The position numbers and the translations under genes are program-made. A model generated the notes under the pieces. It had not been told where the DNA came from, made no database searches, and saw only the letters and a program-made list of their open reading frames with translations. This document shows positions 12,677-21,998 of a stretch of DNA of 22,317 nt, one piece after another. Numbering within the stretch: position 1 is the stretch's first letter; each line of letters begins with the position of its first letter. Origin of the DNA: Nitrospinota bacterium (lineage in GTDB: Bacteria > UBA8248); contig JAYGFR010000384.1 of NCBI GenBank assembly GCA_046581755.1, positions 1 through 22,317 of the forward strand, in the 5' to 3' direction.

Positions 12677-13150
12677 ATGGGAGAAGTTATTCACGTCACC
12701 AAAGCCAGGGTCGTCAAGGAGGTCGGAAAGGGCATGAAGACGGCCTATCTCGATGCCTTCCCCGACGACCCAATCCCCTACGGCATCCACGGGGGCATCA
12801 TGGCCTACTACAAGGCCCAGCCCGAAGAGGAGCGGCCCGCGACGCTGGATCATCTCGTCGCCTCCGTCGCCGGCTGACTCACCGGCAATATGGGAGGCGC
12901 GCTGGATGCGCGCGGCATTTCGAGTGCTCCGGACAATCTGGTGAGCACAGTCGAAGGAATCATCGAAGACGTTGACGGCATGGCCCTGATCACCAAGATC
13001 AAGGTTCACTACAAGGTCCGCATCCCCAAGGGCAAGCGCGAGGAAGCCGAGCGTGCCCTTTCGGTCCACGACCTGGGGTGCCCCGCGAGCCAGAGCGTGC
13101 AGCGCGGGATCATCGTCGAGCACACCGCCGAATTTATCGAAGAGGATTAG
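12677..13150 (+). CDS. OsmC/Ohr-family protein, probable selenoprotein (UGA = Sec at codon 67), 157 aa
   Basis: AGGAGA RBS and ATG at 12677. In-frame TGA at 12875-12877 in PATLDHLVASVAG*LTG, matching the first conserved OsmC Cys. The frame continues to the second Cys (GCPASQSV) and TAG at 13150. Confidence 0.85.
12878..12920 (+). other. Putative bacterial SECIS hairpin
   Basis: GCGCGC-TGGAT-GCGCGC (12897-12913), loop 25 nt after the UGA with G at the second loop position; possible lower ATG/CAT stem. Confidence 0.6.
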
Positions 13151-19037: not shown

Positions 19038-20033
19038 CTACCGGTAGTCCGCGACCTCGACGATCCGGCCCGAGGTGGCGCTCTCGATCACAGCCTCCTG
19101 GACAGCCACCACCTCAATGCCTTCGGGGCCGCCGGTCTCAGGCGCGCCGCCATCGCGGATGCAGCGGGCAAACTCGGCCATCTCGTCGGCCAGGGCATCG
19201 CCTCCCTCGACCGGGAGTTCTTCGCGGGCCTGCTGGTCCACCTTTTGAAAGTAGAGCTTGGCGCCCTCCTCCTCGGCCCAGGCGCACGCATCGGTGCCGA
19301 AAGCGAAGGTGACGCAAATCTTCGGGAGGACCAGCGAGAATCCAATATACCCCAGAGGGCCGCTCTCGAATTCGAGGATGACCGCCGTGACGTCGTCGAT
19401 GTTCCCGGCTCTCAGGATTTTTTTGCTGAACGCGGACACCCGCTTCACCGGCCCGGCCAGGAAAAGGAGGTTATCGATCATGTGAACGCCGAGGCCGGTC
19501 AGACCCCCTGTCGGAATTTCGGCCGTATCGTTGCGCCAGCCCGGCTTGGGGTTTTGCCCCATAGGTAGGGAGAGGTTCGCCTCCAGTTGGTGAACCATCC
19601 CCAACTCGCCCTTATCGATCATTTCGCGCATGCGGCGGTTTCCGCCCTGACGGCGACGATGGTGACCCACCTGAAGGGTGACACCCGCTTTTTGTGTCGC
19701 CTCATAGGCCTGTTTCCCCTCGGCCACAGTAAGCGTCAGGGGTTTTTCGACGAACACATGCTTCCCAGCCGAAGCGGCATCGCATATCATATCCCTATGG
19801 GTGGAATGTGGGGTGACAATGACGACGCCCTCGACCTCTGGATCGTTCAGCACCTCATCCAGGCTAGACGCCTCGCGGCAGCCGAATTTTTCCGCAAAGG
19901 CCTTCCGGTTATCCTCGCTCCGCGCGAAGCAGGTGACCACCTCGGCGCAACCGCTCCTTTTAATGGCATCCATCATCATGCCGCCCCACCATCCAAGACC
20001 TATCGAAGCCAGACGTACTTTCTCTCCAACCAT
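19038..20033 (-). CDS. Gfo/Idh/MocA family oxidoreductase
   Basis: IGLGWWG Rossmann motif, TPHSTH, AGKHVFVEKP and GVHMID; ATG at 20033 after GAAGGAG. Confidence 0.93.
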   Translation of the reverse strand: MVGEKVRLASIGLGWWGGMMMDAIKRSGCAEVVTCFARSEDNRKAFAEKFGCREASSLDEVLNDPEVEGVVIVTPHSTHRDMICDAASAGKHVFVEKPLTLTVAEGKQAYEATQKAGVTLQVGHHRRRQGGNRRMREMIDKGELGMVHQLEANLSLPMGQNPKPGWRNDTAEIPTGGLTGLGVHMIDNLLFLAGPVKRVSAFSKKILRAGNIDDVTAVILEFESGPLGYIGFSLVLPKICVTFAFGTDACAWAEEEGAKLYFQKVDQQAREELPVEGGDALADEMAEFARCIRDGGAPETGGPEGIEVVAVQEAVIESATSGRIVEVADYR

Positions 20034-20201
20034 TTTTTCTCCTTCCAAATCGAAAATTTAGAATAAAGTCACACCCATGCCCCCGTGCACCTGCCGGAGA
20101 GACTGGTAGCGATGATTGGATGGAAAACAATAGATCAACCTGGGAATTTGGAAAAGCCGGAGGAAGGCATCTATGCACGATCAGCTTCACGACACCAGGG
20201 C

Positions 20202-20238
20202 AAAAAAATCTCCTCCCGCCCCGGAGGGTAGGAGGAGA
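20202..20238 (-). terminator. Intrinsic terminator
   Basis: UCUCCUCCUACCC-UCCG-GGGCGGGAGGAGA followed by U7 on the minus strand. Confidence 0.8.
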
Positions 20239-20342
20239 AATGATGATGACGTGGCGGTGGAGAGCCGAACCAATCGACTCATCCAGCCGCCTACTGGAGA
20301 GAGCGTGCCGCCTTATCCGCTCAATCCAGCATTTTATCTACC
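20202..20342 (-). ncRNA. Candidate sigma-54-dependent small RNA or attenuated leader (~140 nt)
   Basis: Bounded by a sigma-54 promoter and an intrinsic terminator; internal hairpins; no convincing ORF. Confidence 0.55.
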
Positions 20343-20352
20343 CAGAATAGAA

Positions 20353-20368
20353 AGCAATTGTCGTACCA
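20353..20368 (-). promoter_or_regulatory. Sigma-54 (-24/-12) promoter
   Basis: TGGTACG-ACAA-TTGCT versus consensus TGGCACG-N4-TTGCW: one mismatch, exact spacing. Confidence 0.75.
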
Positions 20369-20380
20369 TAATTAGAAAAC

Positions 20381-20393
20381 ACTCAACTCATTG
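20381..20393 (+). promoter_or_regulatory. Putative IHF site
   Basis: ACTCAACTCATTG versus WATCAANNNNTTR (one mismatch); lies in AT-rich DNA between the sigma-54 box and the upstream repeats. Confidence 0.5.
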
Positions 20394-20413
20394 AAAAAAT
20401 TCCAGATACCCCG

Positions 20414-20557
20414 CTTTGGCCAATTCGGAAAATTGCCAAAATGTCATATTTTGGGCTAATTTGGAGGCATTTGGGCAAATTGAAATGCCAGAGTGTCATT
20501 TTGCCAAAATGTCGATTTGATGGGGGGAGGCACAACAGGTGGTGGCCCTTTGGCCAA
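20414..20557. repeat. TGYCA-N3 repeat array, putative enhancer (UAS) sites
   Basis: TTGCCAAAATGTC at 20433 and 20501; TGCCA-gag-TGTCA-ttt-TGCCA-aaa-TGTCG at 20486-20514; CTTTGGCCAA at 20414 and 20548. Confidence 0.65.
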
Positions 20558-20604: not shown

Positions 20605-21222
20605 CTAAGGGGCAACCTTTATCAAAGGTCGTGGAGCGGGTAACGCACCCAGCGCTTCCTCGACGGCGGCGCGCATTTCATTGCCCTGGCCAATCAGGGT
20701 GGTTCCCTCGGCCTTGGATTTCCAAAGAAGAGAACCGGTTCTGGCATCCACCAGCCACATATTTACCACGGCGATACAATGATACATTTCGGGACATTCG
20801 CTTTGCCCGCGAATCAGCAAAGCGGCCTCCACCCCCGAGGGAAGAATCTTCAAGAGCGCCTTTTTCATCCCTGGCCCCGGAGCGCCGCCAGTCCATTTGA
20901 CCTTACCCGCCTTGAGCGACCAATTCCGAACTTCGTATCCACGATCGATGAGAACACCCACAGGCAGGAATGTCGCCTCGACCTGGTCCACCTTTTCTAC
21001 AGCTGGCGGAATCAACCCCGCTTTCCGGTAAATATCCCTGAAATATCCCGTCCAACGGTGTGGATAACGAAAAGGTGCAACGGCGATAGACCGAATTTCG
21101 GCAAGGCGTCCGGGATTGACGACCCTCGAATCTTGATAGACGCCGTAGGCGCACCCCGCCACCCCTGTCAACAGAGCGAAAACCACTGCGGCATGCCGAT
21201 ATTTTGACATCTTTCCGCTCAT
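20605..21222 (-). CDS. Putative lipoprotein
   Basis: Basic N-terminus, hydrophobic stretch and VAGC lipobox; SIAVAPF and LVDARTGSLLWKS segments. ATG at 21222 overlaps the upstream TGA (ATGA). Confidence 0.75.
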   Translation of the reverse strand: MSGKMSKYRHAAVVFALLTGVAGCAYGVYQDSRVVNPGRLAEIRSIAVAPFRYPHRWTGYFRDIYRKAGLIPPAVEKVDQVEATFLPVGVLIDRGYEVRNWSLKAGKVKWTGGAPGPGMKKALLKILPSGVEAALLIRGQSECPEMYHCIAVVNMWLVDARTGSLLWKSKAEGTTLIGQGNEMRAAVEEALGALPAPRPLIKVAP

Positions 21223-21998
21223 CCATTCGCCGTCCACGCGATTCCGATGCGAATCCATTCCAAAATCACTTTCCCGGCCGATGCGTACACCGCACGGATT
21301 TCCATAATAAACTCGCCCCAGAATGGACCGAGTTCGCCGCCGCCGGCAGCGGCGAGGGCGGCTCCACCGCTGAAAAGAGCACCCACCAAATAGATCACCG
21401 ACCAGGAGAAAAGCCTGCCACCACGGTCGATATCCGGCTGAGAGGTCGCCAGTATCTGGAAGGTCATTATGACATGGAACGAAAGCGCAAGACCGGTCAG
21501 AAAGGAAACCAGGGGCTGGAAGCGATCATCCCCGGCCCCCCATCCGGCCACGGCGCCCGCCGCCAGGAAAATAGCTGCAAAAAAGGGGAAAAAATACGGC
21601 GCCAGCGTAATGAGAAAATTGGTGCCGCTCATGGCCACCTGGCCGCTCTCCCGCGATACGACCAGCCGGTTCACTTTTTTCCCGAACAAGAGGCCAAAAA
21701 GAAGATGGGTGATTTCATGGACGAACGTGTAGAGAAACCCGGGCGGACGAAGGCGGTGCCAGAGGGCGTACACCGCCGCGCCCCCGGCCAGGGCCCACCC
21801 CTCGGGAACGAGCACCCAGCCGCCGCCGGAGCCGGGAGGATGAAAAAAAGCGCCCGGAACCGTCCGGACAAACGCGCGCGTGACCGCCCAGCAAGCCGGT
21901 AGTATGGCCACCGCCGCGCCCCAGGCCAAAAAGCGGGAGAAAAGAAATGTCACCTCTTGGGGCCCCCTTCCTGTCGGGCGGGCAAAGAACGGAGCCAA
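21219..21998 (-). CDS. Membrane metallopeptidase, M50-like
   Basis: HEITH (HExxH) within hydrophobic segments, LAPYFFP, downstream Asp (QPDI); start codon uncertain. Confidence 0.75.
   Translation of the reverse strand: MAPFFARPTGRGPQEVTFLFSRFLAWGAAVAILPACWAVTRAFVRTVPGAFFHPPGSGGGWVLVPEGWALAGGAAVYALWHRLRPPGFLYTFVHEITHLLFGLLFGKKVNRLVVSRESGQVAMSGTNFLITLAPYFFPFFAAIFLAAGAVAGWGAGDDRFQPLVSFLTGLALSFHVIMTFQILATSQPDIDRGGRLFSWSVIYLVGALFSGGAALAAAGGGELGPFWGEFIMEIRAVYASAGKVILEWIRIGIAWTANG

Follow-up and report, generated by a model that had tools for sequence, protein, structure and literature searches.

The window analysed here is a 22,317-nucleotide stretch of DNA from a Nitrospinota bacterium (contig JAYGFR010000384.1), the assembly of which is denoted G000. 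Its minus strand carries a predicted gene for a structured non-coding RNA, here called RNA A, together with the following features.

20486 to 20514, minus strand: distal enhancer (UAS) consisting of two palindromes of the form TG(A/C)CA-N3-TG(T/G)CA
20434 to 20446, minus strand: proximal site of the enhancer, which lies 78 nt before the -24 box and is the predicted binding site of the receiver-type activator
20383 to 20399, minus strand: putative IHF bending site, an AT-rich stretch that resembles the consensus given in PMC3045617
20353 to 20368, minus strand: sigma-54 -24/-12 promoter, present before 34 of 39 distinct copies and at seven of seven metagenome loci
20202 to 20342, minus strand: RNA A, ~141 nt, with ends as implied by promoter and terminator
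20293 to 20330, minus strand: SL1, a long covarying stem of variable sequence (two-sided changes at 10 of 14 pairs among 40 distinct sequences)
20306 to 20317, minus strand: loop 1, GGCGGCA, unpaired in the ensemble and the predicted pairing seed
20253 to 20291, minus strand: SL2, a bulged hairpin with a GAU-NGG-NUC cap, conserved in sequence
20239 to 20252, minus strand: single-stranded linker with a conserved U-x-A-U
20202 to 20238, minus strand: intrinsic terminator, a GC hairpin followed by U7
20127 to 20155, minus strand: sigma-70-like promoter TTTTC(A/C)-17-TAT(T/G)GT, outside RNA A and serving the downstream operon
19038 to 20033, minus strand: Gfo/Idh/MocA oxidoreductase gene (Pfam PF01408/PF22725), the first gene of the neighbouring operon and not a cis target

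Upstream of these features lie a lipoprotein-like open reading frame without a Pfam or NCBIfam match (20605-21258, minus strand) and a gene for an M50B-like peptidase (21219-21998, minus strand), both of which are syntenic with RNA A across the family. Elsewhere in the window, two short open reading frames on the plus strand (12677-13150) are linked by an in-frame TGA (12875-12877) and together make up an OsmC-like protein of 157 aa, which is probably a selenoprotein.

The original prediction of a novel, stand-alone, sigma-54-dependent structured sRNA at this locus is well supported by the presence of rpoN, by the conservation of promoter, enhancer, fold and terminator, and by the lack of a matching Rfam family. 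The -24/-12 box at 20368-20353, the terminator hairpin with U7 ending at 20202, and the GGCGG (20312-20308) and CCGCC (20257-20253) segments all lie where they had been placed; the enhancer, a sister RNA and a candidate target had been missed. The three-way junction that was proposed to be closed by these two segments was not borne out, because it folds at -53.4 kcal/mol versus -67.6 for a two-hairpin fold and is therefore 14 kcal/mol dearer. Its UCCAGU/GCUGGA helix, of which four of six pairs were examined, reaches 70% pairing in 10 sequences and shows no two-sided change among them, and the junction model as a whole performs no better than shuffles. Similarly, the CU-rich tracts read as anti-Shine-Dalgarno (SD) elements proved to be base-paired within SL1, SL2 and the terminator. 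The fold of RNA A comprises instead a pair of neighbouring hairpins followed by a short unpaired linker and a terminator. The 141-nt strand has a folding energy of -69.5 kcal/mol (z = -6.1), and none of 200 shuffles was equally stable. Two-sided changes occur at 14 of 29 pairs of the two-hairpin model in an alignment that was not fitted to the model and at 13 of 29 pairs in the model-fitted alignment of 40 distinct sequences, and no shuffle out of 500 scored as high in either case; slid controls of the model-fitted alignment were 38-52% paired. In SL2, 97% of the alignment cells are paired, and seven of the 15 pairs are invariant. Across 42 aligned copies, G.U pairs outnumber A.C pairs by 164 to 18, which fixes the minus strand as that of RNA A. 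The sequence GGCGGCA of loop 1 and the closing C are identical in all 42 copies.

The complementarity between GGCGG of loop 1 and CCGCC, which sits buried in the base of SL2, raises the question of an intramolecular switch, in which the loop displaces the SL2 linker and pairs with the 3' CCGCC as a pseudoknot that gates ligand or protein binding. All 10 sequences examined could form the five pairs, and a G-to-A change in the linker with the partner C kept, seen in three of 42 copies, would also suit such an exchange. However, the pseudoknot pairs are invariant and therefore provide no covariation, the release of CCGCC costs 9-12 kcal/mol against a gain of about -8, and no expression platform accompanies the proposed switch, so that this fold is quite improbable.

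RNA A appears to be non-coding, with single-base indels among the copies and no conserved frame, and a leader peptide or antisense open reading frame was rejected on the same grounds. A covariance model was built from ten sequences, namely the window copy and BLAST matches in nine of 40 relatives, and it detected RNA A in 37 of the 42 family genomes, with 44 strong places in all, and in none of nine other genomes of the phylum. The family genomes without a match are G005, in which the contig ends inside the terminator, and four reduced genomes of genus g4. Seven further loci were recovered from metagenomes. A pattern scan outside the family returned at least 119 stretches, and the 12 true matches among the 80 examined come from records titled Nitrospinota, Nitrospinaceae, Tectomicrobia or "bacterium". 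The lineage that bears RNA A is, we assume, UBA8248 of the GTDB. A 24.8-bit match outside the family was rejected, because it has no promoter or terminator around it and resembles coding DNA.

The 4.2-Mb assembly G000 contains no second copy of RNA A. In five genomes of genus g8, a second copy lies 5-7 kb downstream, after a gene with an ARPP-1 domain (PF20208); the duplicated stretch (L164:10887-11030, L165:7242-7378, L166, L167 and L168) is almost exactly the RNA, with a length of 138-145 nt, and the sigma-54 box is decayed or missing there. In G045 (L029:1440-1654), a partial 5' duplicate of the RNA together with ~50 nt of unrelated sequence lies between the promoter and the full copy. Another neighbourhood, that of G008, contains a tRNA-Sec-like gene (L030:266-354; 42.5 bits, just below the Rfam threshold) ~1.2 kb upstream of RNA A and near an IS transposase. 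The expectation that RNA A belongs to no known RNA family held in searches of Rfam 15: the best hit in the window was an unrelated one of 19.9 bits, below the gathering threshold, five homologue loci yielded just a sub-threshold match in the terminator region, and a further copy yielded none. No account of RNA A was found in the searched part of the literature on sigma-54 sRNAs, Nitrospinota or UBA8248, and supplements of motif-discovery studies may hold an entry. Assembled expression contigs from four of six runs, which were preselected with this stretch and possibly include DNA, cover RNA A at a depth of ~3-5, one spanning 20190-20380 (past the predicted start) and another 20046-20321 (across the terminator). 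Judged by comparative sequence analysis, RNA A is a real, conserved and uncatalogued sRNA family that is confined, among the genomes and stretches covered, to one uncultured bacterial family.

The position of RNA A was also compatible with a terminator-controlled leader or riboswitch for the operon of gfo, Mo-hydroxylase and chrA genes, an option that the original prediction had left beside the stand-alone sRNA. RNA A usually precedes the Gfo/Idh/MocA gene and a Mo-hydroxylase subunit gene, and it lies before gfo at almost every primary locus and at seven of seven metagenome loci; chrA, however, adjoins it in just three of 21 regions compared. The leader reading is disfavoured because most primary loci possess a sigma-70-like promoter between the terminator and the gfo start codon, because opening of the terminator costs 17-28 kcal/mol in six of six homologues without a competing antiterminator in any of the six, because a second copy in G012, complete with promoter and terminator, is followed by a convergent gene, and because the operon is kept in the four g4 genomes, in which RNA A is gone. 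In these genomes the M50 peptidase gene runs straight into gfo, and the gap between them keeps just a sigma-70-like box. Neither an antiterminator nor an obligatory place 5' of a gene, as would characterize a riboswitch or attenuator, was observed. A leader function is accordingly very improbable, and RNA A is in all likelihood a stand-alone sigma-54 sRNA.

Transcription of RNA A would start near 20342, judging from sigma-54 geometry. The five distinct copies that lack a sigma-54 box are all second copies in genus g8, and the box of RNA A is among only five exact TGGYAC-N5-TTGCW boxes in the 4.2-Mb assembly, which encodes RpoN, as the original prediction would demand. Promoter, structure and terminator are conserved among relatives, and so is an enhancer of palindromic type TGACA-W3-TGTCA. 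Of 34 promoters, 29 have its proximal site at -75 to -79 and two at -65; one has a loose distal match alone and two have no match to the pattern. Most relatives also have a distal site, at -106 to -131 relative to the -24 box. Three features of a sigma-54-driven sRNA gene are found together, namely a conserved -24/-12 box with rpoN, a conserved enhancer with a co-occurring GAFTGA activator, and a non-coding, structured product with its own terminator that is independent of its neighbours.

Four GAFTGA activators are encoded in G000: two beside flagellar genes, one of the GAF type and one of the receiver type. The last is a receiver-AAA-HTH protein (C263:11549-12940), next to which a Cache/PAS histidine kinase is encoded (C263:12940-15132). 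Of the 42 genomes, 37 encode an orthologue of the receiver-type activator (at least 69% identity); searches found none in the four g4 genomes, which also lack RNA A and its sister RNA. Genus g8 shows just the receiver-type activator and one other, which occurs in g4 as well. Based on this elimination, the receiver-type activator was assigned to RNA A and probably drives its promoter; the assignment is one of co-occurrence alone, and the g4 genomes are reduced ones that lost much else. The activator genes are located ~20-50 kb from RNA A in most of the genomes that have both on one contig and farther away in some. Outside the family, G025 possesses an orthologue of the kinase and no match to RNA A, and in G016 the kinase gene is at a contig end. 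Other sigma-54 boxes in G000 include a strong one at C256:7768 (minus strand) with a ~350-nt leader, the gene behind which we take to resemble glycine-reductase component C, and boxes before flagellar genes on C173, C261, C302 and C94, presumably flgB-, fliD-, flgF- and flgE-like, respectively.

The only other top-scoring sigma-54 box of G000 with a strong enhancer match is on C327, a weaker case being on C315. Behind the box on C327 lies a second uncatalogued, structured, sigma-54 non-coding RNA, RNA B (C327:3974-4233, minus strand; L235), which is ~180-265 nt long and comprises four to five hairpins, several single-stranded C-rich tracts between them and a terminator conserved in sequence. 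RNA B was detected in 35 of 42 family genomes and in none of nine others, and it has no Rfam match. Of 30 RNA B loci, 27 have a sigma-54 box, and 26 of these 27 promoters carry the enhancer seen at RNA A, at about -174. By inspection RNAs A and B share no homology; their occurrence across the genomes compared follows that of a single receiver-type activator and its kinase. Their common enhancer and near-identical distribution would fit a sponge, in which the G-rich loop of RNA A titrates the C-rich tracts of co-induced RNA B in the manner of RosA and RoxS (PMC8216469). Cofolding argues otherwise: in a 6 x 6 matrix, cognate A-B pairs were no better than non-cognate ones and loop 1 was unused in all six cognate folds. 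Opposite the invariant C, moreover, the tract of RNA B varies among CGCC, CACC and UACC. A sponge function is therefore highly unlikely.

Searches of G000, which is 96.5% complete, found none of the RNA-binding proteins Hfq, ProQ, KhpA/B, RapZ and Ro60. The two proteins whose presence the original prediction had proposed to check thus fared differently, csrA being present in G000 within a flagellar cluster and hfq not being found. An analogy to Csr/Rsm RNAs had been drawn from the GGA motifs, and a CsrB/RsmZ-type decoy for CsrA might be imagined, as G000 has csrA and several GGA triplets in RNA A (RNA B has 11 GGA in its G000 copy and fewer in its homologues). However, csrA occurs in only seven of 42 family genomes against 37 of 42 for RNA A, and the loops hold no conserved GGA: the sole conserved GGA (39 of 42 copies) is paired in SL2, and the one at the edge of loop 1 is seen in three of 42. 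RNA A as a CsrA decoy is practically inconceivable. A relation to Y RNAs is likewise not indicated, as no Ro60 (TROVE) gene was found in the genome and the sequence of SL1 varies.

When 4423 start regions of G000 were scanned with loop 1, a gene for the nucleoid protein HU (C307:8527) came fifth. HU was chosen after the list of this one-genome scan had been seen, and the related genomes are not independent. The HU leader (G000 C307:8380-8526, plus strand; L303 and L326-L354) carries a conserved array of YCGCC motifs, and orthologous leaders, which are ~90-160 nt long and lie behind a sigma-70-like promoter, repeat the motif as well. In 30 HU leaders, YCGCC was observed 109 times versus 14.0 expected, compared with 16 versus 8.0 for the other HU/IHF paralogues (26 leaders) and 6 versus 5.7 for icd (29 leaders, one too-short locus having been dropped). 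By summed loop pairing the HU leader ranks 7th of 3558 upstream regions of G000, and by motif count it comes first among 175 promoter-defined leaders. The 7-mer TGCCGCC, the full complement of the loop, occurs at several positions in eight of 13 leaders outside g8 and g4 and in none of 13 g8 leaders or four g4 leaders; in g8 the pairing mostly amounts to 5-7 bp. The G048 leader has a single site, and the G004 leader has a G.U-compatible variant of the 7-mer complement. In the genus of the window, the site nearest the ribosome-binding site lies within a hairpin immediately 5' of the SD and can form 9-12 bp with the loop. With accessibility included, the best site was better than the mean of the shuffles in 21 of 23 genomes, and in 10 of 23 it was matched by no more than one of 25 shuffles. 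No conserved cis partner was found in the HU coding region or 3'UTR at 20 loci, and three leader loci had no Rfam match. The HU leader, with its YCGCC repeats complementary to GGCGGCA of loop 1, is the best target candidate and may be a direct pairing target of RNA A, a proposal that we hold slightly more doubtful than even. Conservation did not uphold icd as a second target, and scans with the linker yielded generic matches to ribosome-binding sites. The family-wide pattern of loop complement plus ribosome-binding site was too noisy, with 150 of ~1000 matches listed.

The g4 genomes complicate this picture. All four retain 2-3 clean YCGCC sites in HU leaders of ~30% GC although RNA A is gone, and in two of them the HU leader is the sole non-coding place among 18 double-motif matches. 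The sites are thus under selection without RNA A. Across HU leaders, 68 of 107 sites have C and 26 of 107 have U directly 3' of the motif, where the A of the loop would favour U. The sites are therefore also read by something else, perhaps as their sole reader. No replacement for RNA A was found in g4: matches to the loop pattern are coding DNA, a GGCGG-plus-terminator match is the 3' end of groEL, other matches are tRNA-Glu, upstream regions or coding, and an 18-bit match lies in a coding region and lacks the invariant C in other genomes. The repeats could be sites for an RNA-binding regulator, with C-rich RNA B titrating that protein and RNA A binding a protein through loop 1 and SL2, masking the sites of the regulator or acting on other mRNAs. 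The persistence of the repeats in g4 favours such a protein, as do their irregular spacing of 12-75 nt, which is that of multi-site protein binding, the conservation of SL2 in sequence even at paired positions, and the several single-stranded C-rich tracts of RNA B. On the other hand, no candidate protein emerged, as Hfq, ProQ, KhpA/B, RapZ and Ro60 were not found in G000 and csrA is limited to seven of 42 genomes. The leaders of G000 show no genome-wide strand bias of YCGCC (1284 versus 1403), and the C/U variation at both ends of the motif and the repeated 7-mer fit pairing to G. A protein reader is thus conceivable but on the unlikely side.

Based on these comparisons, a possible mechanism was proposed in which RNA A is the product of a two-component-induced sigma-54 sRNA gene with enhancer and terminator, and its loop pairs in trans with YCGCC of the HU leader and lowers HU translation; taken as a whole, it has about an even chance of being correct. 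The Cache/PAS kinase (C263:12940-15132) would phosphorylate the receiver-AAA-HTH activator (C263:11549-12940), which could then bind the TGACA-W3-TGTCA-type enhancer and open the sigma-54 promoters of RNAs A and B. RNA A folds into SL1, SL2, linker and terminator, a fold demonstrated by covariation, and presents GGCGGCA atop a long stem. Because no Hfq, ProQ, KhpA/B, RapZ or Ro60 was found, the GC-rich loop would be expected to initiate pairing with the HU leader on its own, at up to 3-5 sites. In the weakest step, binding near the ribosome site and at pyrimidine-rich leader tracts would repress HU, which is somewhat favoured over activation; the alternative sign could arise through opening of the SD-proximal hairpin. 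The transcription, activator, pairing and pairing sign of RNA A are all inferred from the genomes. A wider version is doubtful, namely that one kinase-activator pair controls two unrelated sRNAs and, as judged from strong enhancer matches, no protein genes, that the RNA A loop serves as a chaperone-free multivalent key, several copies of RNA A loading onto the HU-leader array, and that another factor, which survives in g4, also reads the same sites.

Of the systems compared, Pxr of Myxococcus xanthus with PxrK/PxrR is similar to RNA A in its sigma-54 promoter with an upstream enhancer and NtrC-like two-component system, in its three stem-loops with conserved SL1 and SL2 and a variable SL3, and in its functional SL1 loop, lack of Hfq and occasional paralogues, as described in PMC5684412 and PMC5568312. 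The SL1 loop of Pxr is essential, and its mode of action is left open in PMC5684412. In contrast, RNA A has no Rfam match to Pxr, belongs to a different phylum, is accompanied by a second RNA under the same enhancer, and is not adjacent to its activator genes, whereas Pxr sits directly behind pxrK-pxrR. GlmY and GlmZ of the Enterobacteriaceae, with GlrK/GlrR, likewise combine two sigma-54 sRNAs, one two-component system and IHF (PMC3045617). RNAs A and B differ from them in showing no mutual homology by inspection, in a 5-3-5 palindrome rather than TGTC-N10-GACA, and in having neither a RapZ or Hfq that could be found nor an Rfam match. The Qrr sRNAs of Vibrio are also pairing RNAs driven by a sigma-54 activator, LuxO, the box of which has a 5-3-5 layout similar to the RNA A enhancer, and they need Hfq. 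RNA A departs from Qrr in that Hfq was not found, no sequence match exists and the activator scores far under the LuxO family cut-off. Finally, RaiZ of Salmonella is a structured trans-acting sRNA that represses the HU mRNA hupA by pairing (PMC5391140); it is derived from a 3'UTR, depends on ProQ and binds the ribosome-binding site. Unlike RaiZ, RNA A is driven by a promoter of its own, ProQ was not found, and multiple sites are predicted upstream of the SD. RNA A therefore belongs to none of Pxr, GlmY/GlmZ, Qrr and RaiZ; it is an sRNA of a known type, newly arranged in that it comes with a sister RNA and with a candidate target that has several sites.

Only a few groups, namely Vibrio, enterobacteria, Pseudomonas and myxobacteria, are known to have sRNAs driven by sigma-54. 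The present analysis adds two structured RNA families, a shared enhancer, a probable activator and a candidate target, in an uncultured lineage in which no known RNA chaperone was found. As the action of the Pxr SL1 loop was left open, a worked case would inform the study of Hfq-independent loop-pairing RNAs. The YCGCC repeats kept in the absence of RNA A point to a further regulator of HU. If the proposal is true, a multivalent loop acting on the HU leader would tie chromosome packing in these bacteria to an outside signal.
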